Virus genome (UHGV): UHGV-0070660
Length of the DNA: 64,000 bases
Reading direction: 5' to 3' (one strand)
Source of the DNA: a virus
Shown: piece by piece, positions 14,033 to 43,744 of the stretch
Position numbering within the stretch: position 1 is the stretch's first letter
Layout: every line of letters starts with the position of its first letter
Translations under genes and position numbers: made by a program
The notes under the pieces: generated by a model
The model's input: the letters and a program-made list of their open reading frames with translations, nothing else
What the model was told of the DNA's origin: nothing
Databases searched by the model: none

Positions 14033-17000
14033 ATGAACAAGCTATCTATAGGGGTGTTTCGCTGTTCAAGTGTCAGCGAAATATTGAAATACATTAGGGC
14101 AATAACATCTCACCGAGCGCCGATTAGATACGGCGTGGAAAAGGTGGAAGGCAAAAGCTATGACCGACTACGCCGGGAGGCGAATCAGAAGGCGATAGAT
14201 TTGCTTAATTCGCTGGTGGACGGCGCGACACTGACAGATGAACAGCGCCAGATCCTGGCTGGGTACACCGGCGAAGGCGGCATTGGCGGGTCCGTCTCCG
14301 AATATTACACACCAAAGCCGATCGCTGAAGGTGTCTGGGAGATCATGAAGCTCTACGGCGCGGACGTAGGTAACACTCTGGAACCATCGGCGGGAACCGG
14401 CGTTTTTAATGAGACAAAACCGGTTGGTACGGTGATGACCGCGACTGAGATCAGCAGTGTTTCCGGTCGTATAAACCAGCTGTTGCACCCGGAAGACAGC
14501 GTACAGATTTCTCCGTTCGAACAACTGGCTGTAAGCACGCCTAACGATTCATTCGACCATGTTGTGGGTAACGTTCCGTTCGGTGGTCGTGATAACACAC
14601 GCAACATCGATAAGCCTTACGCAGAAGAAACGGACATGGGTTCTTACTTCATGCTCCGCATGCTGGACAAGATAAAGCCAGGCGGATTCATGTGCGTGAT
14701 TGTGCCGCCGTCCATTGTTTCAGGTTCAAACATGAAGCGGTTACGCCTGCGCCTATCACGGAAAGCTGAATTTCTTGGTGCCCACCGCTTGCCTACCGGT
14801 ACTTTTGACGCTAACGGGACCAGTACGGTCGTAGATGTGGTGCTGATGCGCAAACATCCGGCAGAGATGGCTGAGAAAATCCCCCTGGTGGATGAAAGCA
14901 CTCTCGAATCGGCAAATGTGCTTTGGTCAACGTTTATTTCTGGCAAGTGGTTTGAAAAGGATGGCCGCCGGTTTGTTCATGGCACCCAGGAAAAGGGCTT
15001 CCAGGGGCGTATTGAGGTTCGTGCCGACGGTCAGATTGATAACCAGGCTCTTAAAGCGAAGCTGATTCATCGTTTCGAAAGCCGTATCGACTGGTCTTTG
15101 CTCGATATGGCTGAACCGTCACCGACCGCAGACGTTGTTGGTGAAGGGGAAATGCGCCTGATTAATGGCGTATGGCAAAAATATGCTGGTGGTCGCTGGA
15201 TTGAAGCTGATGCAGGGAAGGAACTTAAGATCGATGCTGCCAGTTATGGCGCGGATAGCTGGGAGGCTCTTCAGCGTAACCTGACTACAACAGAAGGCCG
15301 TCTCGGCATGACATTTACCCAGATGGCAAATGTCCGCGATAAGTACACCACATCAATCAGCGACGATATGGTGCAGCTGGTGGACTGGATTAACAGCCAG
15401 CCTGAAAAATACCGTGAACGCTTGTATCGCGGGGCGATGATTGGCCGGATGTTAATTGAATATCAGGACATGAAGGCCGCCGGGCATAGTGCTGAACAAA
15501 TCGAACAGCAGCGCCTTTCTCTGGTATCCCGTTTGCAGGCAGAGATTGACCGTTTTGGTAACCCCGGTCGCGGTCCGATAGCGAAATTATCGGGGAGCGG
15601 TGCGCGCGCCTGGTTTGCTTTCCGTGGTGCAATTAAGCTGGATGGCACTATTTCTGACGAGCTGACAGGAAAACTGGTTACGCATGATTCCAGCGCCAGT
15701 TATGACTCCACCAGCTATCAGGACACCCTGCGTTATCTCTACAGTGATCTCACTCGCGATCCAATCCAGCTCGATGATTTCCGCCTTGCGTTTACCGGCG
15801 AACTGCCAGCCAGTGATGAAGAGTTGCTTAATTTATTGGCCAGCACCCCTGGTATTGCGGTTTCACCGTATGGCGGGATTGTTCCGTTCGCCCGCGCCAC
15901 CAGCGGCGACATTAACGAGATAGTGGCTCCAAAACAGGAATTCCTCGCCACGCTCCCCGACGGTCCAGTAAAGAACAACGTCCTTAATCAGCTGGCAGCG
16001 ATCGAAGAGAAGCGCATCAAGACGCCAGCAGAGAATATCCGGTTTAAGCTCAATAGCCGTTGGTTCGACCGTTCCGTCATTCTGGAATTTTTGCAGGAAG
16101 ACGGCTATCCGGATCTGCGCTATGTGCAGTCAGTGCAGCTTGAAGGCGACGAAATGGTTTCTGACACCTATCACGGTGGTGATGGTCTGTTCGTCGGGCA
16201 CCGATACGGTGTCGTCCAGCGCAAGGATAAAGAAACAGGCGAGATCCGCTACGAGTGGGACCGTAAATCAGGTGAAAACGCGACCGGGTTCCCGGCACAG
16301 CTGGAAAAGTATCTCAATGGTGCGCGTATCGGTGGCAAAGATAGCGCGACGGCGAACGGCTACCGCGAGCAGATGGCACTGCTTGAGGACCAGTTCAATA
16401 AGTGGATCAAGACGCACGATCGCTACGATGAGCTGGTTGCCAAATACAACGATGTTTTCAATAGCAATATCCCGTATGAACACTCTGGCGATCCGCTTGG
16501 GTTGAAGGGATTAAGCGGTAAGCGACAGCCATTTGATTACCAGAATAGCGAGGTGCGCCGACTGTCCGAAGATGGGCGCGGCATCCTGGGCTTCGGTACC
16601 GGGCTGGGTAAAACCACGACCGCGCTGGCGCTTGAGGCGTTCAACTATGAGAACGGTCGTTCCACCCGTACTGCGTATGTAGTGCCTAAATCAGTGCTGG
16701 AAAACTGGTATTACGAAGCAAAAGAGTTTCTGAGTGAAGAGGCATTCAGTAACTACCTGTTCGTCGGTCTTGATGTGCTGATGGATGGCGATCAGATTCG
16801 CCAGGTGCCGGTGCTCGATGAGAACGGTAAACCTGTCGTTGGTGCAGATGGCACTCCCGTTATGCGCGATGCCCTTAAGCTGGCAGATGAAGCCACTATC
16901 ACGGCGCGGATGAACGCGATCCCGCACTCAAACTACCGTGCAGTCGTGTTTACCAAAGAACAATACGCCCGCATTCCGCTACGTGATGACACCGTAGATG

Positions 17001-20000
17001 AGCATGCACAAGACATGCTTTATGACTTCGTTGCTGCCGGGCGTGTGGCCAGCGCAATGGACTCCGATTCCCATCGCAAAGAGGCGGCGCGTCGCCGGGT
17101 ATTGTCGGAGTATTCAGATACCGGTACCGAAAAAGCAGAGAAGTATCCGTACTTTGAGGATATGGGCTTCGACAGCGTGATTGCTGACGAAGGCCACAAC
17201 TACCGCAATAGCTATAAAAATGGTCGCGAAGCGTCACAGCTGGCCTATCTGCCCACCAGCGCGGTGGCGCAATCGGCGCGAGATATGGCAATCAAAAACG
17301 CGTACCTGATGAAAAAGAATGGTGGGCGTGGACCGGTTCTCCTGACTGCAACGCCAGTCGTTAACACCCCGATCGATGCATACAACATGCTTTCTCATGT
17401 TCTGCCGAAGGAATACTGGCAGAAGATGGGGATCTACGGTCCTGATGACTTCGTTAAATTCTTCGGCAAGACCAGGCTGGAAACGGTACAGAAAATCAGC
17501 GGTGAAGTTGAAGAAAAAATGGCGCTGGTGGGCTTTGAAAACCTTGATGCGCTGCGCGGCATATTCCATCGCTGGACAACGCTTAAAACGGCGGAAGACG
17601 TTAAGGATACCGTGGAGATCCCGGAACTGGACGAACACCAGCAGGATGCACCACTTACTGAAGAACAACTGGCGGCGTATGAAGAATTGCGTCAACAGGC
17701 GGAAGCGGCAGCAAAAGCCAACAATGGCGTAACGACCTCGGTTAATGAAGACGGCGTGATTGAGCACGAGAAAGCCCGTCCGATCTTCTCAATAATCAGG
17801 GATATGGACCGCGTATGTACTGACATGGACCTGTACTATCGCCGGATCACCTATCGTTTCCTGCCGGAGTACGCCGATGCGGTGCAGCAGCTGGCGGACA
17901 GTTTGCCTAAACAAGCCACCAGCGAAGACGACGACAGTGATGATTCAATCACGCAGCAATCGCAATACTCCCTGATAGATAAGGGCGAGTTTATTCAGTT
18001 GCAGGTTCCGGAAGCGTTCGAGCAGGAAGTGAATAAGCGCCTGGCCAAGTTTGGCATTGACGAACAGACCGTAACTCACCCCGTTACGCCCAAATACGTG
18101 AAGCTGATCGCCACGCTGAAGGAGTTTTTCCCGGAAGGTAAGCAAATCATCTTCACGGACGAAAAAACGCAGCACCAGAAGCTCAAGCGCATTATCTGCA
18201 ATGCTCTTAACCTTGAACCTTCAAAGGTGGGGATCCTGAATGCTCAGACGGTTGCCGAGGCAGGTAAAACCGGTAAGAAACTGAAAGCGGTTAAACCGCC
18301 GAAAGAGTTACCGGATGAACCAACAGATGCACAGATAGCGAAATACAACGAGCAAATGGCTCTGTATGACGCCTATATCGCGCAGCAGAATGAAATGTCG
18401 TTGGGCGGTCTGGAAAAGATTGCAGCCGACTTCCAGGAGGGCCGGACTCCGATCATCATCTGCAACAAAAAGGCAGAGGTGGGTATCAACCTGCATCGAG
18501 GAACGACTGACATCCATCATCTGACGTTGCCATGGACACCAGCCAGTATCGCACAGCGTAACGGTCGCGGTGCCCGAGTTGGCTCCAACCGTGCAAGCGT
18601 TCGCGTTCACTACTACTGCGGCAAGGGTTCTTTCGATGAATACCGACTGAAGACGCTGAAGCGTAAAGCAGGCTGGATCTCCGATATCCTCCGTTCAGAT
18701 AAGTCAGAAATGGAGAACGCCGACGCCAACGATATGATCGAAATGCAGATGTATACCGCTAAGGATGATGGCGAACGTCTGGCAATGATGCAGGTTCAAA
18801 TGGATAAGGCGAAAGCCGCGCAACGCGCTCGCCAGAAAGAACAGGCTACTATCGACCTTCAGAACTACATCAAGGCGCAGCACGCAGCTGGCGAGGATGT
18901 GGAGGTACTTACCGCTGAATTAGAGCGAAGCAAAGCGGAACTTGAAAAGACCACCGCCGAGGTAGCTAAATTCAAACAGGCGGTAATGGCCAAAGCAGCT
19001 GATAACGCAGACTGGAAAGCCCGCTGGGGTAGCGTCCATCACACAGACCGTACGTTGTTAGCACAGTATCGCGCGTCGTTGAAAAGCGCCATTCAGCGCA
19101 AGGCTAATATCTCTCAAGCCATCTCCCGCTATGAGAAATTATTGAACCGTACTCAGAAGGCCGCGACGGATATCAAACGCCTGCGCCCGCTGGTGGAGGA
19201 TGCAATAAATAAAGGCATTCTGGATGTTGATCCTGACCTGGTTAACCATGCGAGTGAGTTCCTTGTTATCGGCGATCGCTCATGGCGTGTAGGCCAATAC
19301 TACGATTGTGCCGGTGATATCGTTCGCATTAAGTCGCTGGACTTCGACAGCCAGCGCGCAGACGTGGAGATTATCTTTACCTTCAAAGGTACCAAATCGG
19401 GTAACTGGGATGTGAAGACGCTGGATAAACAGGTTGATGTAACTCCCGATGAAGATGCTGTTATGCAGAAAATCAGTGGTGGCGTCTCCATCGCCGGGAT
19501 TAACGACATCATTTCCTGTGACGATTTCTACCGTTTCCAGCAGCGCGGCATGATCAAAATCACTGACTCATACGGCGTTCAGACTACAGAGTCAGGCTAT
19601 AGCATCGATTTTGTTGGTACCTATTCGGACCCACTGAAGCATGCGGTTTACCCGGATCGCCGTGACGGCGCGCTGAAGTCGTCAATTGCAAAATGGGTGC
19701 TTGGTATGATGTCGGAAGGGAATAACCGCCAGATCCGTTCGGCAGAAACATTCCTGGTTGAACTGTTTGGCTCCAATTATGGCGATGTAATCGCGTCATA
19801 CGGAGATACGCTATCCCCTGAAGCAATTCAGGAGAAAATAGCGGATGCGATCGCCAGAATGCCGGAAAAAACAAGCCAGGGGGCTACTCGTAACGGGGAT
19901 TCTGAACTTGAAGTCACCAATGCCATTTTCGGTACCAATGAGTTCCGGGCGTCAGATTATGAGATCACCACAGCACAGTTTGGCACCATTGGCATTTACA

Positions 20001-20800
20001 GCAATAAAGACGAGATCAAACAGTCAATGGACGCTGCAAGCGCGCGCATTGCAGCAGAACGCAAAGCCAATCTGAATCATGCAGTTTCCGCGCTGACTCA
20101 ATCGTGGGTAACAGCAATCAGGGAGGCCGCCACCACAGGAAAAATCACACCGGCAATTGCGGATGTCGTAAACGACGGCTCTAAATTTATGGATGCCTAT
20201 AAAATGGATGCGGTGCAGTTGCCATCAGCCTATGGTCAACTCAGCTATCGCATGACCTACAACCTGGTATCAATGTTTTCCGACCTTGCCATCCTTGGGC
20301 TGGTGGATCTTAACGAGGTTACGCCGGAATTGCTCAGCATGCGCAAGAATCATGTGGAGATATTGCAGAGAATTAACACGGTTCTTGCCGGGCGCACCGA
20401 TGAAGAGAAACAGGCCGACGCTGATCGGATAAACCTGGCCCTTGGCAACATCACGGAGGAAGAGATTGCCGCCAGAAACGAGAAACAAGAAGAGTTATCA
20501 TCAATACAGGGTGATGCCACCAGCATAGCTCAGTCTCTTGGTCTGAATTATCGCGTATCCACCGCCGACCTGAAGATGATGTACGCACCAAAATTCGCCG
20601 CTGGCGAGGTATTTGGGCTTCAGGAAGCCTCAGGCATGAAAGGCGTTCTTTTCCGTGCGAAAGACGCAATCAAGGCGAAATTCGGCGCTCGCTGGCTGCC
20701 AGCGAAGGCGAAGAACAGCGATTTCCCGGGTAACTGGTGGATTATCGAGACAAAACACAACGTGGCGGACGTTCTGGCCGTCATCCAACAATACGCATAA
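14033..20800 (+). CDS. darB: DarB antirestriction protein (N6-adenine methyltransferase plus helicase domains)
   Basis: 2255 aa; GNVPFGG MTase motif IV-like; Walker A GFGTGLGKTTT and DEGHNYRN helicase motifs; size matches P1 DarB. Confidence 0.85.
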   Translation: MNKLSIGVFRCSSVSEILKYIRAITSHRAPIRYGVEKVEGKSYDRLRREANQKAIDLLNSLVDGATLTDEQRQILAGYTGEGGIGGSVSEYYTPKPIAEGVWEIMKLYGADVGNTLEPSAGTGVFNETKPVGTVMTATEISSVSGRINQLLHPEDSVQISPFEQLAVSTPNDSFDHVVGNVPFGGRDNTRNIDKPYAEETDMGSYFMLRMLDKIKPGGFMCVIVPPSIVSGSNMKRLRLRLSRKAEFLGAHRLPTGTFDANGTSTVVDVVLMRKHPAEMAEKIPLVDESTLESANVLWSTFISGKWFEKDGRRFVHGTQEKGFQGRIEVRADGQIDNQALKAKLIHRFESRIDWSLLDMAEPSPTADVVGEGEMRLINGVWQKYAGGRWIEADAGKELKIDAASYGADSWEALQRNLTTTEGRLGMTFTQMANVRDKYTTSISDDMVQLVDWINSQPEKYRERLYRGAMIGRMLIEYQDMKAAGHSAEQIEQQRLSLVSRLQAEIDRFGNPGRGPIAKLSGSGARAWFAFRGAIKLDGTISDELTGKLVTHDSSASYDSTSYQDTLRYLYSDLTRDPIQLDDFRLAFTGELPASDEELLNLLASTPGIAVSPYGGIVPFARATSGDINEIVAPKQEFLATLPDGPVKNNVLNQLAAIEEKRIKTPAENIRFKLNSRWFDRSVILEFLQEDGYPDLRYVQSVQLEGDEMVSDTYHGGDGLFVGHRYGVVQRKDKETGEIRYEWDRKSGENATGFPAQLEKYLNGARIGGKDSATANGYREQMALLEDQFNKWIKTHDRYDELVAKYNDVFNSNIPYEHSGDPLGLKGLSGKRQPFDYQNSEVRRLSEDGRGILGFGTGLGKTTTALALEAFNYENGRSTRTAYVVPKSVLENWYYEAKEFLSEEAFSNYLFVGLDVLMDGDQIRQVPVLDENGKPVVGADGTPVMRDALKLADEATITARMNAIPHSNYRAVVFTKEQYARIPLRDDTVDEHAQDMLYDFVAAGRVASAMDSDSHRKEAARRRVLSEYSDTGTEKAEKYPYFEDMGFDSVIADEGHNYRNSYKNGREASQLAYLPTSAVAQSARDMAIKNAYLMKKNGGRGPVLLTATPVVNTPIDAYNMLSHVLPKEYWQKMGIYGPDDFVKFFGKTRLETVQKISGEVEEKMALVGFENLDALRGIFHRWTTLKTAEDVKDTVEIPELDEHQQDAPLTEEQLAAYEELRQQAEAAAKANNGVTTSVNEDGVIEHEKARPIFSIIRDMDRVCTDMDLYYRRITYRFLPEYADAVQQLADSLPKQATSEDDDSDDSITQQSQYSLIDKGEFIQLQVPEAFEQEVNKRLAKFGIDEQTVTHPVTPKYVKLIATLKEFFPEGKQIIFTDEKTQHQKLKRIICNALNLEPSKVGILNAQTVAEAGKTGKKLKAVKPPKELPDEPTDAQIAKYNEQMALYDAYIAQQNEMSLGGLEKIAADFQEGRTPIIICNKKAEVGINLHRGTTDIHHLTLPWTPASIAQRNGRGARVGSNRASVRVHYYCGKGSFDEYRLKTLKRKAGWISDILRSDKSEMENADANDMIEMQMYTAKDDGERLAMMQVQMDKAKAAQRARQKEQATIDLQNYIKAQHAAGEDVEVLTAELERSKAELEKTTAEVAKFKQAVMAKAADNADWKARWGSVHHTDRTLLAQYRASLKSAIQRKANISQAISRYEKLLNRTQKAATDIKRLRPLVEDAINKGILDVDPDLVNHASEFLVIGDRSWRVGQYYDCAGDIVRIKSLDFDSQRADVEIIFTFKGTKSGNWDVKTLDKQVDVTPDEDAVMQKISGGVSIAGINDIISCDDFYRFQQRGMIKITDSYGVQTTESGYSIDFVGTYSDPLKHAVYPDRRDGALKSSIAKWVLGMMSEGNNRQIRSAETFLVELFGSNYGDVIASYGDTLSPEAIQEKIADAIARMPEKTSQGATRNGDSELEVTNAIFGTNEFRASDYEITTAQFGTIGIYSNKDEIKQSMDAASARIAAERKANLNHAVSALTQSWVTAIREAATTGKITPAIADVVNDGSKFMDAYKMDAVQLPSAYGQLSYRMTYNLVSMFSDLAILGLVDLNEVTPELLSMRKNHVEILQRINTVLAGRTDEEKQADADRINLALGNITEEEIAARNEKQEELSSIQGDATSIAQSLGLNYRVSTADLKMMYAPKFAAGEVFGLQEASGMKGVLFRAKDAIKAKFGARWLPAKAKNSDFPGNWWIIETKHNVADVLAVIQQYA

Positions 20801-20833: not shown

Positions 20834-21274
20834 ATGGCCACACTATCTGATACAATAAAACCGAATAAAACATATCTTGAGGCGGTACTCCGTACAGCGT
20901 TGTTAGGAAAGACAGAAGACGAATACGTTGATTTCTTCCTGTCAGGGCTACGCGGGCGATTACTGAAAAATCCCCGCCTGTACCGCAGCTATGGCCCATA
21001 CTGGCCGGAAATTAAAAAATTATTACTGGAGCGCGGTTATGGTAATTTCGGTCGTCTCGTTGACCGTGACGTTCGCAAAATTTACCGTTATGACCGCCCG
21101 GCGCTGACGCTCATAGCTGCGACGCTCTACAGCCAGGAGCGTTTTGATAATGGTCAGATATACTCAGCCTGGCATTTACTGCCAGTGCCTGAAGAGGTTG
21201 ACGACCAGGACTATGAGTTTGAGTCTTACGATTTGGAAGTTGAAGCCTTGGCACAGGCTGGAGAGAAAACTTGA
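20834..21274 (+). CDS. ulx: Ulx (upstream of lxc)
   Basis: 146 aa, position between darB and lxc. Confidence 0.45.
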   Translation: MATLSDTIKPNKTYLEAVLRTALLGKTEDEYVDFFLSGLRGRLLKNPRLYRSYGPYWPEIKKLLLERGYGNFGRLVDRDVRKIYRYDRPALTLIAATLYSQERFDNGQIYSAWHLLPVPEEVDDQDYEFESYDLEVEALAQAGEKT

Positions 21275-21519
21275 AGAAGCGATACTACACAGTAAAGCAT
21301 GGGACGCTACGAGCATTGCAAGAGTTTGCTGATAAGCATAACGTTGAGGTGCGCAGGGAAGGGGGAAGTAAAGCTCTGCGCATGTACCGTCCTGACGGAA
21401 AATGGCGGACGGTCGTCGATTTCAAAACTAACAGTGTTCCCCAGGGCGTCCGCGACCGGGCATTCGAAGAATGGGAGCAGATCATCATAGATAACGCATT
21501 GCTTCTGAACGCTGATTAA
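21271..21519 (+). CDS. lxc: Lxc/Bof modulator of C1 repression
   Basis: 82 aa, 4-nt overlap with ulx; size and position match P1 lxc. Confidence 0.55.
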   Translation: MKKRYYTVKHGTLRALQEFADKHNVEVRREGGSKALRMYRPDGKWRTVVDFKTNSVPQGVRDRAFEEWEQIIIDNALLLNAD

Positions 21520-21571
21520 TAATCATTTAAAGCCCATATGATATGGGCTTAAACAACAGGATCGATATACA

Positions 21572-22612
21572 GTGTTAGTTAAATATATAGGCGAGAGTTA
21601 TATGGAAAAACCTTGGCCGGGCATGCACATTAGAACATCTTGTCTGGAGGATGGTTTCTTTAGAGCAACGCAACCAAAGTATCTTAATGATCCGTCGAGT
21701 GAGTCGCGACTTCTTCCATTTTTTAATAAATTTTCACCAGCCGATTACGCATGGGCTAGAAATGAATTTAAGAAAATGCAACGAGATCCATCTTATGTCC
21801 CATCTATACAAGAGTTAGAGTATTATTTAAAACCTTGCGGGAAACGATACGGAGAGGATTTTCCACACTTGTTAATCAATGAAGGTTTTACCTCAATGGA
21901 TTCATATGATGAATCTAAACTCCAAGAAATAGTAACGTACCTTAACGATTATTTAGTAGAAGCCGTAAGCTGTCATCTTGGTGTATTCTCTCTATCAAAA
22001 AGTGATTGCAATCTACACATGTGGACTCATTATGCATCGATAGGAAAGGGGTTTGCTGTAGTTTTCGATGAAACACACGATTTTTTTAAAATATATCGGC
22101 CGTGTGATGTTAGTTATAATCCAGAAGATAGAGCATCTGTAACCTATTATAAAGGCGCTGTGCGATTTAATGGCTATCCTGCGCCATCGAGGAATATAGA
22201 TATAAAGAATAAAGATAATACATTGCATGGGATCTTAAATCGAGATCCAGTTCGCGAGCTTTTTATTAATAGGCTTCTTTATACAAAAGGTGAAGAGTGG
22301 CTTCCTGAAAATGAAAGTAGAATTATTTTTCCATTGGCTGATTGCGAGAGAAAAATAGGAAGCATTGTCTCTCCATCGATTGATGATTGCCTATTGAATG
22401 AGTATCCTGATGTTTTTCATGACTATCATGAAATTAACTTAAAGAAAATTCCTTTTTCTGCATTCAAGCAAATTACCTTAGGGTATAACATGACTGAAAA
22501 AGATAAAAATATAATTTTAGATAAAGTTAGTTCGAATAAAGAATTGTCTCACGTCAACGTATTACAATCAAAACTTGATATATACGGAAAGGTTGTGGTT
22601 AAGCCCATGTAA
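21572..22612 (+). CDS. DUF2971-like protein, AT-rich cargo gene
   Basis: 346 aa (GTG start; first ATG at 21602); motif GVFSLSKSDCNLHMWTHYASIGKGFAVVFDE resembles DUF2971 signature; markedly AT-rich versus backbone. Confidence 0.5.
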   Translation: MLVKYIGESYMEKPWPGMHIRTSCLEDGFFRATQPKYLNDPSSESRLLPFFNKFSPADYAWARNEFKKMQRDPSYVPSIQELEYYLKPCGKRYGEDFPHLLINEGFTSMDSYDESKLQEIVTYLNDYLVEAVSCHLGVFSLSKSDCNLHMWTHYASIGKGFAVVFDETHDFFKIYRPCDVSYNPEDRASVTYYKGAVRFNGYPAPSRNIDIKNKDNTLHGILNRDPVRELFINRLLYTKGEEWLPENESRIIFPLADCERKIGSIVSPSIDDCLLNEYPDVFHDYHEINLKKIPFSAFKQITLGYNMTEKDKNIILDKVSSNKELSHVNVLQSKLDIYGKVVVKPM

Positions 22613-36833: not shown

Positions 36834-37772
36834 TCAGCTTTCGTTGGCATGGTCCACCTCATGCTTTTCAGCCACCAGCGGCAATAAAGCCCTGGCCATC
36901 TTATGAACCAATAGTGCATCAATAATGCCAAGCGTATGCCCCGGCTTAATGTTTAATGCCGCCTCAAGGTGACACCTTTCCAGGTCACTTTTCTCGGCTT
37001 GTTTATGATGATCTGGTGTAATAACGTCGCCCAAAACACGGCTAATTCTTTCTCGTAATTGCTGGGTGCCAGCACACTTGATCGCTGTATCGTGGAGACG
37101 GTTAACCAGTTCGCGATAAACATGCGGCTTAATGCGGATACGTTCACCGGTGACGCCCTTTCCTGGCGCTGGCACCGAACTATCCGGAATATCCGGATAG
37201 TTGCCAGCCTCGTAAGCTACCCACAGCCAGTGCATGAATGTTTCAGTGGACACACAACCACAGTCCACATCGATTTTCCCGCGTTGCTGTTCCAGCCATT
37301 GCCCAAAATCCAACCTGTAAGTCTTACTTTCAAGTTCATCACCATTGAACTCGACTTTCTGCGACGCTATGAGAGCTGATTCGTATTGTTCGCGAGTGAC
37401 AACTGACTGGTATTCATCGCTATCAAGGCCACCAATTGGAAGCTCAATCTCACAACAAAAATTGCGCCCAAAGAAAGTGTCTTTTTTGTGGTCTGAGCCA
37501 AAAGCAAAAGTCGCGCATGGTGCCATTAAATTGACACTGGGTAGGTAACAATAACTCATTCCATCAGGCCACCCGCCGCACTTAGGCAGCTCCTTCACTA
37601 ACAAGTCGATAAGCTTCATTTTTTTATCATCTTTGCAAGCCGCCAAAGCCATTTGGGCAAGTGCCAATACTTCATCTGCCGTATATCCAGCACCGTGACC
37701 ATACATTTCGATACGGGAAATAATCTCTGATATACGCTCTTCAGTGATTCTGGTCATTTCTTTTTGCGCCAT
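36834..37772 (-). CDS. hypothetical protein
   Basis: 312-aa ORF. Confidence 0.45.
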   Translation of the reverse strand: MAQKEMTRITEERISEIISRIEMYGHGAGYTADEVLALAQMALAACKDDKKMKLIDLLVKELPKCGGWPDGMSYCYLPSVNLMAPCATFAFGSDHKKDTFFGRNFCCEIELPIGGLDSDEYQSVVTREQYESALIASQKVEFNGDELESKTYRLDFGQWLEQQRGKIDVDCGCVSTETFMHWLWVAYEAGNYPDIPDSSVPAPGKGVTGERIRIKPHVYRELVNRLHDTAIKCAGTQQLRERISRVLGDVITPDHHKQAEKSDLERCHLEAALNIKPGHTLGIIDALLVHKMARALLPLVAEKHEVDHANES

Positions 37773-38128
37773 TTCTTTTCACATTCCTTAGTCCATTTTT
37801 CAATGTTCATTTTGGCAATATCAGTCATTCCATCACCTAAGAAATACTTTTTCCGGTACGTCTTGCACTTAAACCACACTACAACAGCCACCAGCCAGAA
37901 AATAAAAGGCCATACGGCAATACCAACTCCAGCCGCGATAAAGCCCAATATCCATAAATGAAGCTCTCCAACTTCTGTTTCCGGCAATATTCTTAAAGAA
38001 TTAAACAGCAGGCTGAACGAATGGTCGTATGCATTGGCAGTATAAGACATGCAATCCATATAATTAAAGTCATAGCCTGCGGCTGCCGCCCATAATGGGC
38101 GGTCAAGAAAATGTTTTAGTGTCATCAT
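37754..38128 (-). CDS. membrane protein with Lys-rich C-terminus, AT-rich
   Basis: 124 aa, TM region LWILGFIAAGVGIAVWPFIFWLVAVVVWF, C-terminal KKWRKKK. Confidence 0.45.
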   Translation of the reverse strand: MMTLKHFLDRPLWAAAAGYDFNYMDCMSYTANAYDHSFSLLFNSLRILPETEVGELHLWILGFIAAGVGIAVWPFIFWLVAVVVWFKCKTYRKKYFLGDGMTDIAKMNIEKWTKECEKKWRKKK

Positions 38129-38134
38129 ATTAAT

Positions 38135-38428
38135 TTAAGGTTCAGACCAGTTATCTTCAATAGCAATGCTTAATCTTTGTAGCCATTCTGCTAATTTCAG
38201 CATTGCTTCTCTTTCGCTTAAACCACACGGAAAATCATCAAGCGATATTGTTGGCTTGAAGTTTCCCAAATTATCCATTTCAACGGTCAGATTTTGCTCC
38301 AGAACGGTATTTCTTACGCGGCTATTGTGCCGAAGCAAATATACTGAACGTGATTTATTGGTTTTGTGGTCGAACGTATATTCGGTAAGTATCATCTGAC
38401 TTCCGCCATGATTATTACCGCGCCACAT
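38135..38428 (-). CDS. small hypothetical protein, AT-rich
   Basis: 97 aa, GGAG RBS, 6-nt gap to downstream membrane gene. Confidence 0.45.
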   Translation of the reverse strand: MWRGNNHGGSQMILTEYTFDHKTNKSRSVYLLRHNSRVRNTVLEQNLTVEMDNLGNFKPTISLDDFPCGLSEREAMLKLAEWLQRLSIAIEDNWSEP

Positions 38429-38451
38429 AATTACTCCGTGTTAATTGAAAT

Positions 38452-38754
38452 TTAGCTATTAATCTTCACTTTTATCGCGAACACCTTTACCGGTTTATCA
38501 CCGAAGTGTGGATGTGTGATTGTTTTTATTTCATATCCGTTATACGGGACGTCAATTCTGCGACTGAAGTCTTCGCGCTTCGGATATCCCTTTGTGATAA
38601 TCAGGCGGTAATACTTACGGTTAACGAGGCGCTTATTCCAGTAGTCATTACACAGGCGATACTCTTCCGTTTTCTCCCCGCGAATCATGGCATCGAAGTA
38701 TTCACCTTTAACGGCAAGTTGCAGGTTAGCCATTACCTCACCTCCAGTCTCCAT
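38452..38754 (-). CDS. ASCH-like small protein
   Basis: about 100 aa, GEKTEEYR motif resembling ASCH GxKTxExR. Confidence 0.35.
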   Translation of the reverse strand: METGGEVMANLQLAVKGEYFDAMIRGEKTEEYRLCNDYWNKRLVNRKYYRLIITKGYPKREDFSRRIDVPYNGYEIKTITHPHFGDKPVKVFAIKVKINS

Positions 38755-38996
38755 ACCGCCTGACCAATCCGGCTGGCATGGGTATCTTTGGATACTGTTC
38801 CGTCTTTAGCCAGCTCCATAAGAATTTTGCGCAAATCTGCCGAACGCCATTCTTCATCAGGAAATTCCTTCTCCATTGCCAACCGCAGATTCCAGGTTGC
38901 CATCCTGAATGGATATTCCCCGCCGAGAGCTTTATCTTGCAGGGCAGCCCGGGAACGCATCACCTGCAAAACCTTCTCTTTTACATCCATCATTTC
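38733..38996 (-). CDS. hypothetical protein
   Basis: start set at internal ATG 38996 to give 4-7 nt overlap with upstream gene. Confidence 0.35.
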   Translation of the reverse strand, partial: EMMDVKEKVLQVMRSRAALQDKALGGEYPFRMATWNLRLAMEKEFPDEEWRSADLRKILMELAKDGTVSKDTHASRIGQAVWRLEVR

Positions 38997-39847
38997 GCCT
39001 CCTGCGGCGGTTCTGGTAGCGGCATCCAGAACAAGGCGTTCCCTAACCACGATAAAGTGCCGTCGCTCAACTCCACGTATTCCCCTTGTACCTGTCCTGC
39101 CATATACTCGCCGTGCTTTGAATAAATTAAAATCCAATCATCTTGAGGGGGCATTCGCTCACTACAGCTTATCCAACCATCCGGAGTTACCGGAGAGTTG
39201 CCTGCCAGTCTACGCAAAACAGCCTTAACAGCCTCAATACGGTCATCATCGTAACTTTCCGCCGTATCTATGCGGTCGAGCATGATGATTGCGTTATCAA
39301 TATCAGGATTGCCGGTCCACTCATTACCGCGATTGGATTCGGCAGCCTGGTTGCCGCGTACTGGTTGATTGTCGGCTTTACCCAGTCTGTCGTCGCTGCA
39401 TGAATGCCCTTCCAGCCAGGCCAATGCTTGTCGCATGAAATACGCAATATGTTTGCCGTGGTAATCGTCTTCATCGATGTGAAAAGCGATACTACGAATG
39501 TATTCAATTGCGTTTTCAATGGCCTCTAACGCTATCGGCGCTGGCGGAGTGGTATATAGTTTTCGACATTTGTATATCCAACCGGCATGGTCAGGCGTGT
39601 CTGTAAAACGCAAATCGTCTTCGTAGCACTCACGACTACGTTCTTTCCATTCCGTCCACGGAACACCGCTATTCCAGGTGGGGCGAGTGCAGGACTGATA
39701 CAGAACAGGTTCTGCTTCCAGCGATGCCAGCACGATACGCGCCAGTTCTTCCGCTTCTTCTGCTGGCAGTACAACGTTGCTATCAGGTCCGTATGTTTCG
39801 CGCCACTGCTTGATTGTCAGCAGTCGCTCTTTGGTAATAGTGATCAT
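38990..39847 (-). CDS. DUF551-domain protein
   Basis: 285 aa, C-terminal WISCSERMPP...WMPLPEPP typical of DUF551. Confidence 0.55.
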   Translation of the reverse strand: MITITKERLLTIKQWRETYGPDSNVVLPAEEAEELARIVLASLEAEPVLYQSCTRPTWNSGVPWTEWKERSRECYEDDLRFTDTPDHAGWIYKCRKLYTTPPAPIALEAIENAIEYIRSIAFHIDEDDYHGKHIAYFMRQALAWLEGHSCSDDRLGKADNQPVRGNQAAESNRGNEWTGNPDIDNAIIMLDRIDTAESYDDDRIEAVKAVLRRLAGNSPVTPDGWISCSERMPPQDDWILIYSKHGEYMAGQVQGEYVELSDGTLSWLGNALFWMPLPEPPQEAK

Positions 39848-40359
39848 GCCGCGTTTCCTTCTTTCTTATTAACAATTACACCGTCATATATTTCATTAAG
39901 GTGCCCTCTCAACTCCATGCGCCTTAATGCAGATAACATGTAATCGCATTCAACCTGCTTATTCCCAATAAAAGGTTTATCTTCAGGGTTACCCCAACAG
40001 CAATTACCCTTGGGCCACCCATGTACTTTCCGTACTCTTCCGTTAACAACGTGAAGTAATCCCCAGCCAGGTGGTAAATCCTCAATTGAAATAATTCCCG
40101 GCTCACTAATAAAGAATCGCCAGTCGCCCATTCCAAGAGACGGATTTTTACGAAAACGCTTTTTTCTATCTGCCAACAAATCAGCACGAGAACACTTCGC
40201 CTCTATCAGGCATGATGCTGAATTTCTGAACCCCATAGCATCTGGCTGTTCTCCGGTACTGGTTACAGCTATAAAGCGGTCATGAAAACAAACCTTGAAC
40301 CCGTTGCGCTTAAGGAACTTGTACGCAATCTGACAGAGTTCGCGGTGTGTTAACGCCAT
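39844..40359 (-). CDS. hypothetical protein with possible PD-(D/E)xK nuclease motif
   Basis: 171 aa from ATG 40359 with AAGGAGAG RBS; GEQPD...EAK motif. Confidence 0.4.
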   Translation of the reverse strand: MALTHRELCQIAYKFLKRNGFKVCFHDRFIAVTSTGEQPDAMGFRNSASCLIEAKCSRADLLADRKKRFRKNPSLGMGDWRFFISEPGIISIEDLPPGWGLLHVVNGRVRKVHGWPKGNCCWGNPEDKPFIGNKQVECDYMLSALRRMELRGHLNEIYDGVIVNKKEGNAA

Positions 40360-40360
40360 A

Positions 40361-40549
40361 TCACTCTCCTTTAGTGCGCAAATGGTTTTTCCAGCGGTTT
40401 TGCGCCGCGCTGGGCTTTTTGCAAAAACCACAATCCATCATCCCGTAATATTTCATCAACCCCATCCGTCGGTTGCTGAGTCTCACCCACTGCCAGACGC
40501 CAGGAGCGTTTCTACGAACTAACAGAATCTTTGCTTTACGGTTTTTCAT
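40361..40549 (-). CDS. small basic protein, paralog 1 (MKNRKAK start)
   Basis: 62 aa, stop abuts downstream gene start. Confidence 0.4.
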   Translation of the reverse strand: MKNRKAKILLVRRNAPGVWQWVRLSNRRMGLMKYYGMMDCGFCKKPSAAQNRWKNHLRTKGE

Positions 40550-40561
40550 CTTACTGCGTAC

Positions 40562-40732
40562 CCTTTCTTCCGCCTGTTCTGTGACGCAGTAGGCTTACGC
40601 TTTGCGGCAAAAGCCACCTGACCAAATGGATGGAGTACCGCTATCTTATGGTTGCTAATAACCAGCTCCACCACACGCACAGGTCGCTGTAAAAAAAGTC
40701 GTTTTGCCTTACGGTTTTTCATCGCTTTGCTC
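40562..40732 (-). CDS. small basic protein, paralog 2 (MKNRKAK start)
   Basis: hand-translated 56-aa ORF not in track; shares 15-nt start region TTACGGTTTTTCATC with paralog 1. Confidence 0.35.
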
Positions 40733-40986
40733 TCCTGCGTCTCTTTGCTGCTCGTCGTGCCGCTGCAATACCGGTATGGCGGCGCTTTGGTGCTGGGGTG
40801 ATGTTGTCAGCCATCAGGACCTGTGGCTTTGCAATTAGCGCAGAAGCCCAAAAACGAGTCGGGTACGGTAACAAGCCAATACATGCCACACGCACTACTC
40901 ACCTCCGTTGATGCGAATGCCTGTTGCAATGCTGTTTATGATGCTGTCAGTGCATGGGGTAGAAAGCTGGGCATCTCCAGCAATTT

Positions 40987-41250
40987 TCATGACATCAACA
41001 TCTGCATATCGAATACCGAGGTGTTTAGCCATGCGTCATTGCAATTCACTGCGTAGGTTCTGATGCTGATGCTCTCCCGCCCCTGACAGACGCCAGGCCA
41101 GTCAATAAAGTATCCGCAATGCCTACCCTCAGACGTGCGCGCAGGATAAATGCCGTTATGACCCGGCAAAATATATGCTACCCATTCATCTTGCGTTGCC
41201 TTTTCTGCCGCCTCACGCAGTACCTGATAGTCAATTGTCATTCTCGCCAT
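40987..41250 (-). CDS. hypothetical protein
   Basis: 87-aa ORF. Confidence 0.35.
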   Translation of the reverse strand: MARMTIDYQVLREAAEKATQDEWVAYILPGHNGIYPARTSEGRHCGYFIDWPGVCQGRESISIRTYAVNCNDAWLNTSVFDMQMLMS

Positions 41251-41882
41251 CCTTCACAGTTGTAATCACTACAGCCTTCAAAATCATATGGGCTGTACTG
41301 CCAGGTTATTTTTCCGCAATGCGGACAATTCCAACGCACCTTCCCGCTTCGCGACTTCTTTCTTCTGTTTTGCTTTTTCAACCAGTCAGGCATGACCAAA
41401 CCTGCGCCCTGAACCATTGTTCTGCGGTTAAAGTTATTGATATTGAACGTCCGGCGCTTTGCTGCATCAGCAATGGAAAATGGCAACCAAACTATTCCTG
41501 GTTCGTTTTTGTTGGCGACGCTAAAGATGGTCGCTTTACTGAAGTCATCTGTTGGCAATCCACCGTGTTGAAGCCAGTAAACATCGTTGCCGTTCCAGCT
41601 ACCTTTTTTGTAGGCCACATACGCAGTGCAATCTGACTCAATCAGGCTTTCTGTAGGGATGTACTGGCAATCAACGTGCCACACAGCCATTGCATCCACG
41701 CTATCAGCGCAAACAGGCTGATCGATATCTCGACCACAATTCCAGGCTTTTTGGGCTTCTTCCAGCGTGTAAACATGAGCGCGATCGATATCAGAACTGT
41801 AACCATTGCCGTTATGGCAATGGAATGAGGCGTTATTACCCACAGTTTCACGCAAGCACATCATGTAAAAACGGTTACTCAC
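41238..41882 (-). CDS. hypothetical Cys-rich protein
   Basis: 214 aa, C-terminal CPHCG...CxxYNCEG cluster. Confidence 0.45.
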   Translation of the reverse strand: MSNRFYMMCLRETVGNNASFHCHNGNGYSSDIDRAHVYTLEEAQKAWNCGRDIDQPVCADSVDAMAVWHVDCQYIPTESLIESDCTAYVAYKKGSWNGNDVYWLQHGGLPTDDFSKATIFSVANKNEPGIVWLPFSIADAAKRRTFNINNFNRRTMVQGAGLVMPDWLKKQNRRKKSRSGKVRWNCPHCGKITWQYSPYDFEGCSDYNCEGWRE

Positions 41883-42090
41883 TGGATGCCTCCCAGCAAA
41901 TTTGTCTTATATAAGAACTGTTAACGCGCTTTACTTTCCCGTCGAACTCCAGTTTCTTTAGACGACGCAAAACGTATGCCGTTTTGAGTGTGCGATATTT
42001 ATCCCTAAGCCAGTTGGTCACGACGTAAGTCATACAGCGCCCGTGTTCTTCCAACACCCGAACTATTTCTTCGTCGGTTGGCTTGCTCAT
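41875..42090 (-). CDS. hypothetical protein
   Basis: 71-aa ORF in operon context. Confidence 0.35.
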   Translation of the reverse strand: MSKPTDEEIVRVLEEHGRCMTYVVTNWLRDKYRTLKTAYVLRRLKKLEFDGKVKRVNSSYIRQICWEASSE

Positions 42091-42308
42091 TTTGTCGCTC
42101 CTTCAGCTTTCTCTACTTTCGCTGCCATGATTTCCAGCTTTTGTGCTGCCGATGCCGCTAACCTGTGAAATTCTTCATCTGTTTCAACTGGAATTGGTAC
42201 AAACCTGACACCAATTTGAGCAAGGCTATGCGCCATTTCGAGACTTGCTCTTAACTCTGCTGGGGATGCTTTATTCAGGCCGACTTCCTCACAAATAACT
42301 GATTGCAT
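42087..42308 (-). CDS. hypothetical protein
   Basis: 73-aa ORF. Confidence 0.35.
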   Translation of the reverse strand: MQSVICEEVGLNKASPAELRASLEMAHSLAQIGVRFVPIPVETDEEFHRLAASAAQKLEIMAAKVEKAEGATK

Positions 42309-42317
42309 ACGCTCGCC

Positions 42318-43043
42318 CTACTGAATACGCTCAAACTCGATTACCCAAACCCAGGGATTAGCACTCCAGCTTTCTTCGCCGTAGATGGATTCCCACAGGC
42401 GCTGGAACGCAACCTTGGCCATTGCGAAATCCCCCTTGGGAGTAAGGAATGTTCCCGGGTGATCAGGAAGCAAACTTCCAGCAGGCGGAATGCCCTCATC
42501 CCTTGCATCGCATTCGCTGATATCGTTCAACCGCTCAACGCGCACGTTGGTAATTTCCAACAGGATGCGTGATGCCCATCGCGGCATGTGAATTGATGGA
42601 CGCCACCCACCATCAAACTTTTCATTCACTGTGTGAGGTTTCCAGTCGGCATCATCTGGTATCGACCATAAACCGTAATCACCAGGCTTTTGCTCACAAC
42701 TGGCCCGATAAATCCTTGCTGCGTTCTTCTCATCGCCACGACAAAGGTTGTCGTTCCAGTCCACACTGCAACCATCTTCATTGCCTAATATCGCCCATGT
42801 TTCACGAACCCAAATTCGATCGCCGACGATACCAAAGGGGCAATTGAAAACACTGCTTACACCATCAGCCCCGTACCACTGAAAACCTGCACCAATTTTT
42901 CTAACCATCACTGGTGCTTCTGGACCAACTTCCGCAGGCTGATTTTTCATTATCCGCCGCGTCTGCGTTTTCCTTCCTTCGAGGATGGCCCGGACCATCT
43001 CATCGTTGAAAATCATGCCGCGCTCTTTCACTTCGCCTTTCAT
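42318..43043 (-). CDS. ASCH-domain protein
   Basis: 241 aa, ILEGRKTQTRR and HMPRWASRILLEITNVRVERLNDI motifs. Confidence 0.5.
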   Translation of the reverse strand: MKGEVKERGMIFNDEMVRAILEGRKTQTRRIMKNQPAEVGPEAPVMVRKIGAGFQWYGADGVSSVFNCPFGIVGDRIWVRETWAILGNEDGCSVDWNDNLCRGDEKNAARIYRASCEQKPGDYGLWSIPDDADWKPHTVNEKFDGGWRPSIHMPRWASRILLEITNVRVERLNDISECDARDEGIPPAGSLLPDHPGTFLTPKGDFAMAKVAFQRLWESIYGEESWSANPWVWVIEFERIQ

Positions 43044-43221
43044 GCATCCCCCTTACCCATGCGCGACGATGCCGCCAAAAGTGATAGAGAACAGCCAGAA
43101 ATAGATCGCGGCCATAATGATTTTGAATGCCGTGTTCATATTTTCAGCTCCTGTGATTGATTGGATACATGCCGCGCCTTGCGGCATGTTTTTATTTTCA
43201 CTTTCTCTGTTTTAAAAATCA

Positions 43222-43238
43222 AGATTTATTAGAGCAAT
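43222..43238 (-). promoter_or_regulatory. C1 operator-like site
   Basis: AGATTTATTAGAGCAAT, 16/17. Confidence 0.6.
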
Positions 43239-43744
43239 TATCGTTGATAAAGAAGCGCATTTTCATATTCCCTGACCATTAACGTAAGTACGCCGTGACT
43301 CCTGAAAACACGCGCCACTTCAATCTTATCTTCCAGCGCGAACGCAATTTTACTTAGACCAATTTTCTTCAGGATATCAATCTTTGCAGGGCCGTCATTT
43401 CTGTCATCGGTGGCAGGACGCATAGATAGCAAAGGCTCAGCCCCATTTGTTACGTGCTTACGCAACCAAGCTCGTGTTTTATCCCTGGCTATCTCACAGC
43501 GCCCGGTTACAAACCAGAGCGTGTAAATGCTGGACAACTGGCGCACCATATCAATAACTGGAGTGATGGGAGCATCAGTGTCACAGGCAAGGTTAAACTC
43601 GTTCCAGTGCTCTGTTAATGCACCTTTGCCAGGTGGTGGAAGTAAATGCAGCCTGTCTTCCGTTGCCTCTGATATCGTTCCATCAATATCTACTATGACG
43701 ATGTACGGACGTTCCTGGTGTGCGTGTTTATTGAAAATACTCAA
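43238..43744 (-). CDS. HAD-superfamily phosphatase-like protein
   Basis: 168 aa, motif I VIVDIDGTI. Confidence 0.5.
   Translation of the reverse strand: MSIFNKHAHQERPYIVIVDIDGTISEATEDRLHLLPPPGKGALTEHWNEFNLACDTDAPITPVIDMVRQLSSIYTLWFVTGRCEIARDKTRAWLRKHVTNGAEPLLSMRPATDDRNDGPAKIDILKKIGLSKIAFALEDKIEVARVFRSHGVLTLMVREYENALLYQR

Follow-up and report, generated by a model that had tools for sequence, protein, structure and literature searches.

An AT-rich two-gene cassette as mosaic cargo at the pap-hot hot-spot of P1-like phage-plasmids

The analysed DNA (the window, 64,000 nt of UHGV virus genome UHGV-0070660) was assigned by sequence to the P1-like phage-plasmids of RCS47/SJ46 type, its nearest records being the P1-like phages RCS47, 'P1' MH422554 and SJ46. 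Two small genes on the minus strand were examined, and both open reading frames proposed by the first-pass annotation, together with the 6 nt between them, were recovered. ORF97 (38135..38428, 97 aa) is preceded by a GGAG Shine-Dalgarno sequence (38434..38437, minus strand) located 5 nt before its ATG, with the upstream sequence acacGGAGtaattATG. The spacer ATTAAT (38129..38134) runs from the ORF97 stop to the start of ORF124 (37754..38128, 124 aa), which has no Shine-Dalgarno sequence of its own; because of this, coupled translation or re-initiation is suggested for ORF124. Upstream, a 23-nt intergenic gap separates ORF97 from an ASCH-like gene of phrog_625 (38452..38754, minus strand), and DUF551 and Eaa-type genes are also among the neighbours. 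Downstream, the final codons of ORF124 overlap the start of ORF312 (36834..37772, minus strand), by 19 nt if ORF312 begins at the ATG at 37772 or as an ATGA overlap if it begins at 37757. The PmgU of the reference P1 annotation corresponds to the C-terminal third of ORF312. An Rfam scan of the window returned three tRNAs only, all far from the cassette. The phd-doc genes lie ~2 kb from the cassette on the same element.

The stretch had been described as clearly more AT-rich than its neighbours, and this was borne out: GC content was 0.399 (39.9%) vs. a window mean of 0.487 (48.7%; sd = 0.033 in 675-bp windows), at the 2.2nd percentile; the lowest GC in the window (~0.33) occurs not here but at ~21-22.5 kb. 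P1-like alleles show purifying selection on both frames (dN/dS 0.16-0.30 for ORF124 and 0.08-0.34 for ORF97), which are therefore real genes rather than chance open reading frames.

ORF97 matched phrog_1258 over its full length (E 3.2e-49, residues 1-97 of 97), a family that PHROG labels 'unknown function'. The protein is acidic (pI 5.9), contains no hydrophobic segment, and was modelled (pLDDT 80.5) as four antiparallel beta-strands (residues 10-61) followed by a C-terminal helix (72-94). It is a soluble protein of the alpha+beta kind, and none of its relatives is informative. A DEDDh_C reading, raised by a weak match in two relatives (E 0.02), was rejected, as no exonuclease of the fetched loci matched the ORF97 profile. 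Scans against Pfam, NCBIfam and PADLOC, which took in five neighbouring genes as well, gave no family for ORF97 or ORF124. When every member of the two family alignments was compared with Pfam, only transmembrane noise was obtained on the ORF124 side.

ORF124 likewise gave a full-length match to a PHROG family of 'unknown function', phrog_2638 (E 6.6e-63, residues 1-122 of 124), and all of its aligned relatives (28/28) matched phrog_2638. The family is small, with 36 representatives among 1.84 billion proteins. Three parts of the protein were distinguished, and the strong transmembrane region and Lys-rich tail of the first-pass description were both found. The N-terminal domain (aa 1-55; 37964..38128, minus strand) is net acidic and is the best-conserved part of the family, with conserved residues F7, P11, A14, G18, Y19, D25 and Cys26. 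It is followed by 31 uncharged hydrophobic residues (aa 56-86; 37871..37963, minus strand; Kyte-Doolittle 19-residue maximum 2.38) with a central conserved P-F-x-F-W, predicted to form a single transmembrane helix, and then by a Lys-rich basic tail of net charge +9 (aa 87-124; 37757..37870, minus strand). K+R were more abundant on the C flank in 26/28 family members (mean 4.6 vs. 1.7), and the positive-inside rule together with a medium-confidence model (pLDDT 67) predicts a single-pass inner-membrane protein in N-out/C-in orientation, with the N-terminal domain periplasmic and the tail cytoplasmic. A monotopic hairpin with both ends cytoplasmic is also possible, because the 31-residue segment has a central proline. 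Neither a BFVD fold search, which gave no annotated match, nor a PDB sequence search was informative for ORF124.

Comparison with other P1-like elements placed the cassette in cargo, not backbone, in agreement with the proposal that this DNA is compositionally foreign. The two genes fall within a lambdoid ea/nin-type gene block of 5,132 bp (37216..42347, minus strand), which is absent from reference P1, where the sequence is contiguous across the junction. The block junctions are exact (37215/37216 and 42347/42348), and a search of its borders for repeats that could have served as recombination substrate gave only TT/TGGGT microhomology. The cassette is missing from both reference P1 (NC_005856) and P7, and was carried by 254/680 pmgS-positive plasmids (about 37%) and by 8/19 pmgS-positive phage records; of the E. 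coli copies, 314/318 were plasmid-borne. The status of a P1 backbone 'putative morphogenetic' (pmg) gene was considered and rejected, as the cassette, lacking in P1 and P7, is not conserved across P1-likes. The comparison points to pmgT and pmgU of textbook P1 being what a 5.1-kb deletion left behind.

The variable locus itself is already known. It is the pap-hot variable hot-spot of P1-likes, reported as 'variable region 8' (PMC9603915) and as 'RD-5 between pap and lxr' (PMC6906374), and the P1 genes that occupy the slot of the cassette are non-essential (PMC10695390). The cassette locus shares with RD-5/region 8 (pap-pmgT...hot-lxr) its position, its association with low GC and its gene-by-gene mosaicism; those papers describe only 'variable', hypothetical ORFs, and ORF97 and ORF124 are neither singled out nor characterised in them. 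No functional study of either gene was found in the literature searched. Given the absence of the block from P1 and the non-essential P1 genes at the slot (PMC10695390), ORF97 and ORF124 are probably dispensable accessory genes.

For regulation, the head of the operon (OpmgT operator, promoter and first gene) is conserved between P1 and the window. A C1 repressor operator, ATTGCTCTAATAAATCT, lies at 43222..43238 on the minus strand with 1 mismatch to the consensus and corresponds to OpmgT/Op88 of P1; it is overlapped by a sigma-70 promoter-like site (43237..43266, minus strand) at the position of the P1pmgT/P2pmgT promoters predicted in P1. Operator and promoter region together are ~96% identical to the OpmgT region of P1. 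Between the operator and the cassette no convincing minus-strand terminator was found, only weak sites at chance level, and a consensus scan of 37.7-39 kb identified no minus-strand promoter-like site; an internal promoter within the AT-rich DNA is nevertheless possible. ORF97 and ORF124 would thus be co-transcribed inside a ~6-kb minus-strand operon from the C1-repressed pmgT promoter, and the operon products would be expected after induction or infection, not in a stable lysogen. Going by the conserved P1 regulatory sequence, the cassette is probably expressed early in the lytic cycle and is probably silent in the lysogen because its genes sit mid-operon behind the C1 operator.

Outside P1-likes, relatives of the two genes occupy early or nin-type regions in lambdoid, N15-like and Proteus phages. 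The identity of ORF97 is 58% to N15 gp44 and 44% to an SPN9CC ORF, and that of ORF124 is 31-59% to prophage ORFs with which nin regions begin. N15 gp44, phiKO2 gp43, SPN9CC_0035 and these prophage ORFs, from the phrog_1258 and phrog_2638 group, are true homologues: small early-operon genes with no assigned function. The lambdoid relatives are under lambda N/Q control, while the regulatory sequence here points to C1 control in a P1-type myovirus-plasmid.

Homologues of ORF124 outside P1-likes recur beside replication genes. They directly follow a Toprim-DnaB primase-helicase gene (L016, L018), lie one gene past DnaB or lambda P (L017, L009), follow lambda-P-like or DnaC-like genes (L014, L015), or lie between exonuclease and primase genes (Proteus, L028) or between exonuclease and Dam genes (L006, L008, L012). 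This recurrence, together with the Lys-rich tail, could be explained if ORF124 assisted phage DNA replication or DNA metabolism at the membrane, for example as a tether that holds replicating DNA by the basic tail in the manner of phi29 p16.7, an early membrane protein of small size whose gene lies with replication genes and which has a basic part in the cytoplasm. We regard this as unlikely. Some of this proximity is structural, as replication genes always precede the nin region in lambdoid phages; P1-likes do not have ORF124 beside replication genes; and the best-conserved part of the family is the predicted periplasmic N-terminal domain, the basic tail being poorly conserved in distant members. 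Neither p16.7 nor any DNA-binding domain resembled ORF124, and the architectures differ: in p16.7 the anchor is N-terminal and the folded DNA-binding domain C-terminal, whereas in ORF124 the transmembrane segment is central and the conserved domain N-terminal. No homology between p16.7 and ORF124 was found.

The same genomes bear on a role in lysis. Holin and endolysin genes are visible in L014-L017 as separate genes ~4 kb downstream of the ORF124 homologue, behind the antiterminator, and ORF124 itself is not part of a lysis cassette. In overall build ORF124 does resemble a holin- or antiholin-like protein that sets lysis timing, being small and having a transmembrane segment and a basic, highly charged C-terminus; with no holin family matched in Pfam or PHROGs either, such a function appears highly improbable.

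An envelope-acting role for ORF124 alone, early in infection, was given more weight, though it remains a tentative reading. It could, for example, block DNA entry of superinfecting phage as T4 Imm does. T4 Imm and Sp are small, non-essential, early envelope proteins encoded amid replication genes. ORF124 is likewise a membrane protein of small size, with predicted early expression and homologues among replication genes, and it shares with exclusion proteins an envelope location, by prediction only. The slot of ORF124 in sister plasmids also encodes small signal-peptide, lipobox or 2-TM proteins, which favours an envelope role. The likeness to Imm is one of functional analogy only: sequence or fold similarity between ORF124 and T4 Imm/Sp was not detected. 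Pfam/PHROG annotation of the 28 family members and the BFVD fold search gave no similarity to T4 Imm, P22 SieA, P1 Sim or HK97 gp15.

Early operons of temperate phages commonly carry kil-type genes, such as lambda Kil, Rac KilR, P1 Icd and SPO1 gp56. ORF124 is a membrane protein, small and non-essential, from a predicted early operon, and could be a host-takeover protein of this type that perturbs the envelope or cell division, with ORF97 an unrelated cytoplasmic modulator. No homology of ORF124 to known division inhibitors was found, and we consider this explanation quite unlikely.

The first-pass annotation had further suggested that the two genes act as a functional pair in toxin-antitoxin, abortive infection or exclusion; in such a module ORF124 would be the effector and ORF97 its partner or regulator. 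Several features of the P1-like copies fit such a module, namely the 6-nt spacing with an ORF124 that lacks its own Shine-Dalgarno sequence, the AT-rich cargo DNA, and the constant order of the genes, as no ORF124 was found in P1-likes without ORF97 upstream. Both families also co-occur in genomes of one Proteus phage group. Outside P1-likes, however, the pairing was missing in every context examined. None of the 10 non-P1 contexts fetched had an ORF97 homologue within 5 kb of the ORF124 homologue, and no ORF124 neighbour was present at N15 gp44, in phiKO2 or in the SPN9CC nin region. In the Proteus phage Isfahan, the two homologues lie in divergent operons. Among the contexts examined, the families are adjacent only in P1-like elements. 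The order found in Providencia prophages, where ASCH, a gene for a 100-aa protein, a gene for an 80-aa protein and an ORF124 homologue follow one another, was considered as a mirror of the ASCH-ORF97-ORF124 order and rejected, the 100-aa protein being unrelated to ORF97.

Within P1-likes the two genes are also separable. About 56 plasmids have ORF97 but no ORF124; at one locus the homology breaks coincide exactly with the borders of the ORF124 gene, at another IS1 is inserted within ORF124, and at a third an additional gene lies between ORF97 and ORF124. In sister plasmids the slot of ORF124 is filled by the other small proteins described above. Many contigs from several lineages carry, beside a 100% intact ORF124, a disrupted ORF97 allele with a 1-nt deletion (L025 and L026) or the nonsense change E74* (L027). 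This last argument is weaker than it appears, because ORF97-null alleles would be tolerable even with a toxic ORF124 if the operon is silent in lysogens, C1 repression masking the toxicity.

The cassette resembles type II toxin-antitoxin pairs, e.g., phd-doc, in that two small genes lie side by side on a plasmid prophage with a short spacer between them. Unlike them, it shows no conserved pairing, no detected promoter of its own and no family matches, and its downstream gene can persist when the upstream one is inactivated; a PADLOC-DB search of ORF97, ORF124 and five neighbours yielded 0 families at E<=0.1. With the separate distributions, the independent ORF124 exchanges and IS1 insertion, the lack of PADLOC, Pfam or NCBIfam matches and a position mid-operon behind the C1 operator, the functional pair was not upheld, and a two-gene module is in our judgement very unlikely. 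A functional link of some sort between the genes is possible, because the missing Shine-Dalgarno sequence suggests that translation of ORF124 may depend on ORF97 and because ORF97 is always upstream in P1-likes; an exclusion-like role for ORF124 alone, acting without ORF97, is possible as well.

The cassette is ordinary mosaic cargo. Taken as a whole, the explanation that we favour, and hold to be reasonably probable, combines independent accessory genes, the pap-hot hot-spot, an early operon and mosaic adjacency. ORF97 and ORF124 would be unrelated, non-essential accessory genes, each exchanged independently, such as populate the early nin/ea regions in lambdoid and N15-like phages, and their adjacency would have arisen by mosaic recombination and not from a two-component mechanism.

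The significance of these results is mostly at the level of annotation. Reading pmgT and pmgU as products of a deletion bears on how that region of P1 is annotated. A small protein followed by a membrane protein in foreign DNA has the look of a module, yet here the adjacency is mosaic, which calls for caution in scans that flag such pairs. ORF124, whose small family repeatedly adjoins phage replication genes, offers a simple target for toxicity and exclusion tests. More speculatively, and with rather low confidence, phrog_2638 may be an uncharacterised early inner-membrane family, confined to phages of Enterobacterales and tied to replication or DNA entry, either as an Imm-like blocker or as a replisome tether. 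If so, the P1-like copy of ORF124 would be a portable single-gene version of that function and directly testable.

Two minus-strand genes lie where the first-pass annotation had placed them, with the same 6-nt spacing. ORF97 (38135..38428; 97 aa, soluble and acidic) has a GGAG Shine-Dalgarno 5 nt before its ATG, and ORF124 (37754..38128; 124 aa, predicted membrane protein) starts 6 nt past the ORF97 stop and lacks a Shine-Dalgarno; its final codons run into the start of a further minus-strand gene, ORF312 (36834..37772). The reported AT-richness of this cassette was borne out (GC 0.399 vs. 0.487 for the window, 2.2nd percentile among 675-bp windows), though a segment at ~21-22.5 kb is richer in AT. 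That segment (~21000-22500, GC ~0.33) is the AT-rich maximum of the window and includes a 346-aa ORF (21572-22612, plus strand), shortly downstream of a 2,255-aa ORF (14033-20800) presumed to be DarB-like. Comparison of eight or nine P1-like alleles gave a dN/dS of 0.16-0.30 for ORF124 and 0.08-0.34 for ORF97, and both were therefore considered expressed, selected genes.

The window represents a P1-like phage-plasmid, and this region shares 99-100% identity with Escherichia phage RCS47 and the 'P1' records MH422554 and MH445380, and ~96% with Salmonella phage SJ46. P1 backbone genes flank the region: pacAB, lpa, pdcB, doc-phd, humD and hot to one side, pap, pmgS and pmgR to the other. Reference P1 carries pmgT-pmgU-pmgV-upfMNO at this slot, and these genes are non-essential (PMC10695390). 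Local alignment indicated that 37216-42347 (5,132 bp) is absent from P1, whose sequence is unbroken over the junction. The genes in this block are of the lambdoid ea/nin type (DUF551/Eaa, ASCH and others), and parts of it also occur in Stx phages. The locus has been described as a low-GC-associated recombination hot-spot, both as 'variable region 8' (PMC9603915) and as 'RD-5 between pap and lxr' (PMC6906374). Plasmid records with the full cassette numbered 254 and phage records 8, compared with 680 and 19 for the backbone gene pmgS; ORF97 without ORF124 occurred in ~56 further plasmids. The cassette was present in 309 of 5,426 complete E. coli genomes, and 314 of 318 copies were plasmid-borne. 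As the cassette is rarer than pmgS, and missing from reference P1, it is not conserved backbone with a morphogenetic role, and the earlier inference of foreign cargo was right. An Rfam scan of the window also returned three tRNA genes (56514-56586, 58217-58289, 58295-58367; minus strand).

A predicted C1 operator (43222-43238, minus strand) that departs from the consensus at one position directly follows the pap homologue, with a promoter-like site overlapping it. This stretch is ~96% identical to the annotated P1 OpmgT (former Op88), with its predicted P1pmgT and P2pmgT promoters. A tightly packed, partly overlapping minus-strand gene run leads from the operator through ORF97 and ORF124 to ORF312, and the gap between ORF97 and the ASCH gene upstream is only 23 nt. 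The promoter scan found no minus-strand promoter-like sites around the cassette, and terminator-like matches between operator and cassette were weak, at chance level. This arrangement most likely makes the cassette an internal segment of a C1-repressed operon, with expression expected on induction or infection but not in lysogens. On the plus strand, a strong GC-rich hairpin with a T-run (43167-43189) lies in the interval from the operator to the first operon gene; it would stop transcription in the opposite direction and not the minus-strand operon. A 28-aa hydrophobic ORF, MNTAFKIIMAAIYFWLFSITFGGIVAHG (43053-43139, minus strand), with a strong AGGAG Shine-Dalgarno, also lies between OpmgT and the first operon gene (pmgT in P1); P1 has the identical sequence, and neither NC_005856 nor RCS47 has a CDS annotated at this position.

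The two genes had been proposed to act as a pair, in toxin-antitoxin, abortive infection or superinfection exclusion; a two-gene module was not supported, as the families separate outside P1-like elements and are independently swapped or disrupted inside them. No ORF124 neighbour was found for the ORF97 homologues of N15 (gp44) and the SPN9CC nin region, and no ORF97 homologue within 5 kb of the ORF124 homologues on N15-like, lambdoid and other contigs (L006-L009, L012-L018). Proteus phage Isfahan has both families, ~6 kb apart in divergent operons. Among P1-like elements, homology to plasmid L005 ends precisely at the ORF124 borders (37757, 38135), with other small genes instead; in L020, ORF124 is split by IS1 and ORF97 is intact; L021 has a 54-aa gene between the two; and the gene upstream of ORF97 differs in SJ46-type elements. 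ORF97-null alleles also occur, through E74* or through a 1-nt deletion (seen on at least 19 contigs and in three diverged protein variants), and the adjoining ORF124, on contigs of 57-99 kb, is fully intact. These alleles argue against an antitoxin role for ORF97, although toxicity could go unseen if the genes are repressed in lysogens. ORF124 may act by itself in an exclusion-like role.

Neither protein matched Pfam, NCBIfam or PADLOC. ORF97 belongs to PHROG 1258 ('unknown function'), with numerous Enterobacterales prophage relatives (122 clusters) and a conserved C-terminal motif, FP.GLSERE.MLKLA.WL.RL...IEDNWS.P. It is modelled with confidence (pLDDT 80.5) as four antiparallel strands plus a long helix, and fold and sequence searches gave no lead to function; a weak DEDDh_C match was shown to be noise. 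The Isfahan homologue (gp19, L028 8301-8567) is mislabelled 'portal protein'.

ORF124 belongs to PHROG 2638 ('unknown function'), and its family is very small: a search of 1.84 billion proteins gave 36 representatives at E<=1e-3. Its relatives, nearly all stand-alone and ~105-130 aa, come from prophages of Yersinia, Providencia and Xenorhabdus and phages of Proteus, Morganella, Klebsiella and Yersinia, and are named 'hypothetical protein' in every source name recovered by cluster look-up. Two homologues are mislabelled, Yersinia phage P840 ORF53 (L012 3001-3360) as 'conotoxin' and Isfahan gp07 (L028 2156-2509) as 'ribonucleotide reductase large subunit'. The expected TM region and Lys-rich tail were recovered as an uncharged hydrophobic segment of 31 residues (aa 56-86) and a C-terminal stretch with a net charge of +9. 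Conservation peaks in the N-terminal ~35 residues (F7, P11, A14, G18, Y19, D25; Cys26 in 22/28), followed by the hydrophobic segment, with its central PF.FW, and the basic juxtamembrane stretch. Because Lys+Arg is higher in the C flank than the N flank in 26/28 members (mean 4.6 vs. 1.7) and the N-domain is acidic in most cases, ORF124 is predicted to be a single-pass N-out/C-in protein. The structure model was of medium confidence (pLDDT 67), and a cytoplasmic hairpin is a possible alternative topology.

In sister P1-like plasmids the ORF124 slot holds a 69-aa signal-peptide protein and a 58-aa two-TM protein, with a 134-aa lipobox protein nearby (L004 3767-3976; L005 3536-3745, 3825-4001, 4307-4711; at the ORF124 position or just upstream of ORF97), a pattern suggesting that small envelope proteins accumulate at this slot. 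In T4, the replication genes are interspersed with genes for small early envelope proteins that include Imm and Sp, which act in exclusion. By analogy, the first-ranked, tentative reading is that ORF124 acts early at the cell envelope, for example in Imm-like exclusion. ORF124-family genes repeatedly adjoin or sit within replication modules of lambdoid and non-lambdoid phages: homologues directly follow a Toprim-DnaB primase-helicase (L016, L018), lie one gene past DnaB or lambda P (L017, L009), lie downstream of lambda-P-like or DnaC-like genes (L014, L015), or are flanked by exonuclease and primase (Isfahan, L028); others are flanked by exonuclease and Dam (L006, L008, L012). A replication-associated membrane role, for which the membrane-anchored replication organiser p16.7 of phi29 is a precedent, was ranked second and would be less probable than the Imm-like role; a kil-type host-takeover role came third, slightly less probable again, and a holin-like role last.

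Identical sequences exist in public records, the hot-spot has been described earlier, and both PHROG families are catalogued though uncharacterised; the cassette is therefore ordinary mosaic cargo. The reference P1 locus (L003, NC_005856, 14489-15558) was compared with the 5,132-bp block and its border genes, ORF241 (42318..43043) and ORF312. P1 PmgT corresponds to the first ~232 aa of ORF241 and then continues, out of frame, into the middle of a gene of the ORF312 type; PmgU, with a GTG start, is the in-frame C-terminus of that gene, and the junction has TT/TGGGT microhomology only. As PmgT and PmgU appear to be fragments of these two genes, textbook P1 looks like a deletion derivative at the pmgT/pmgU locus.
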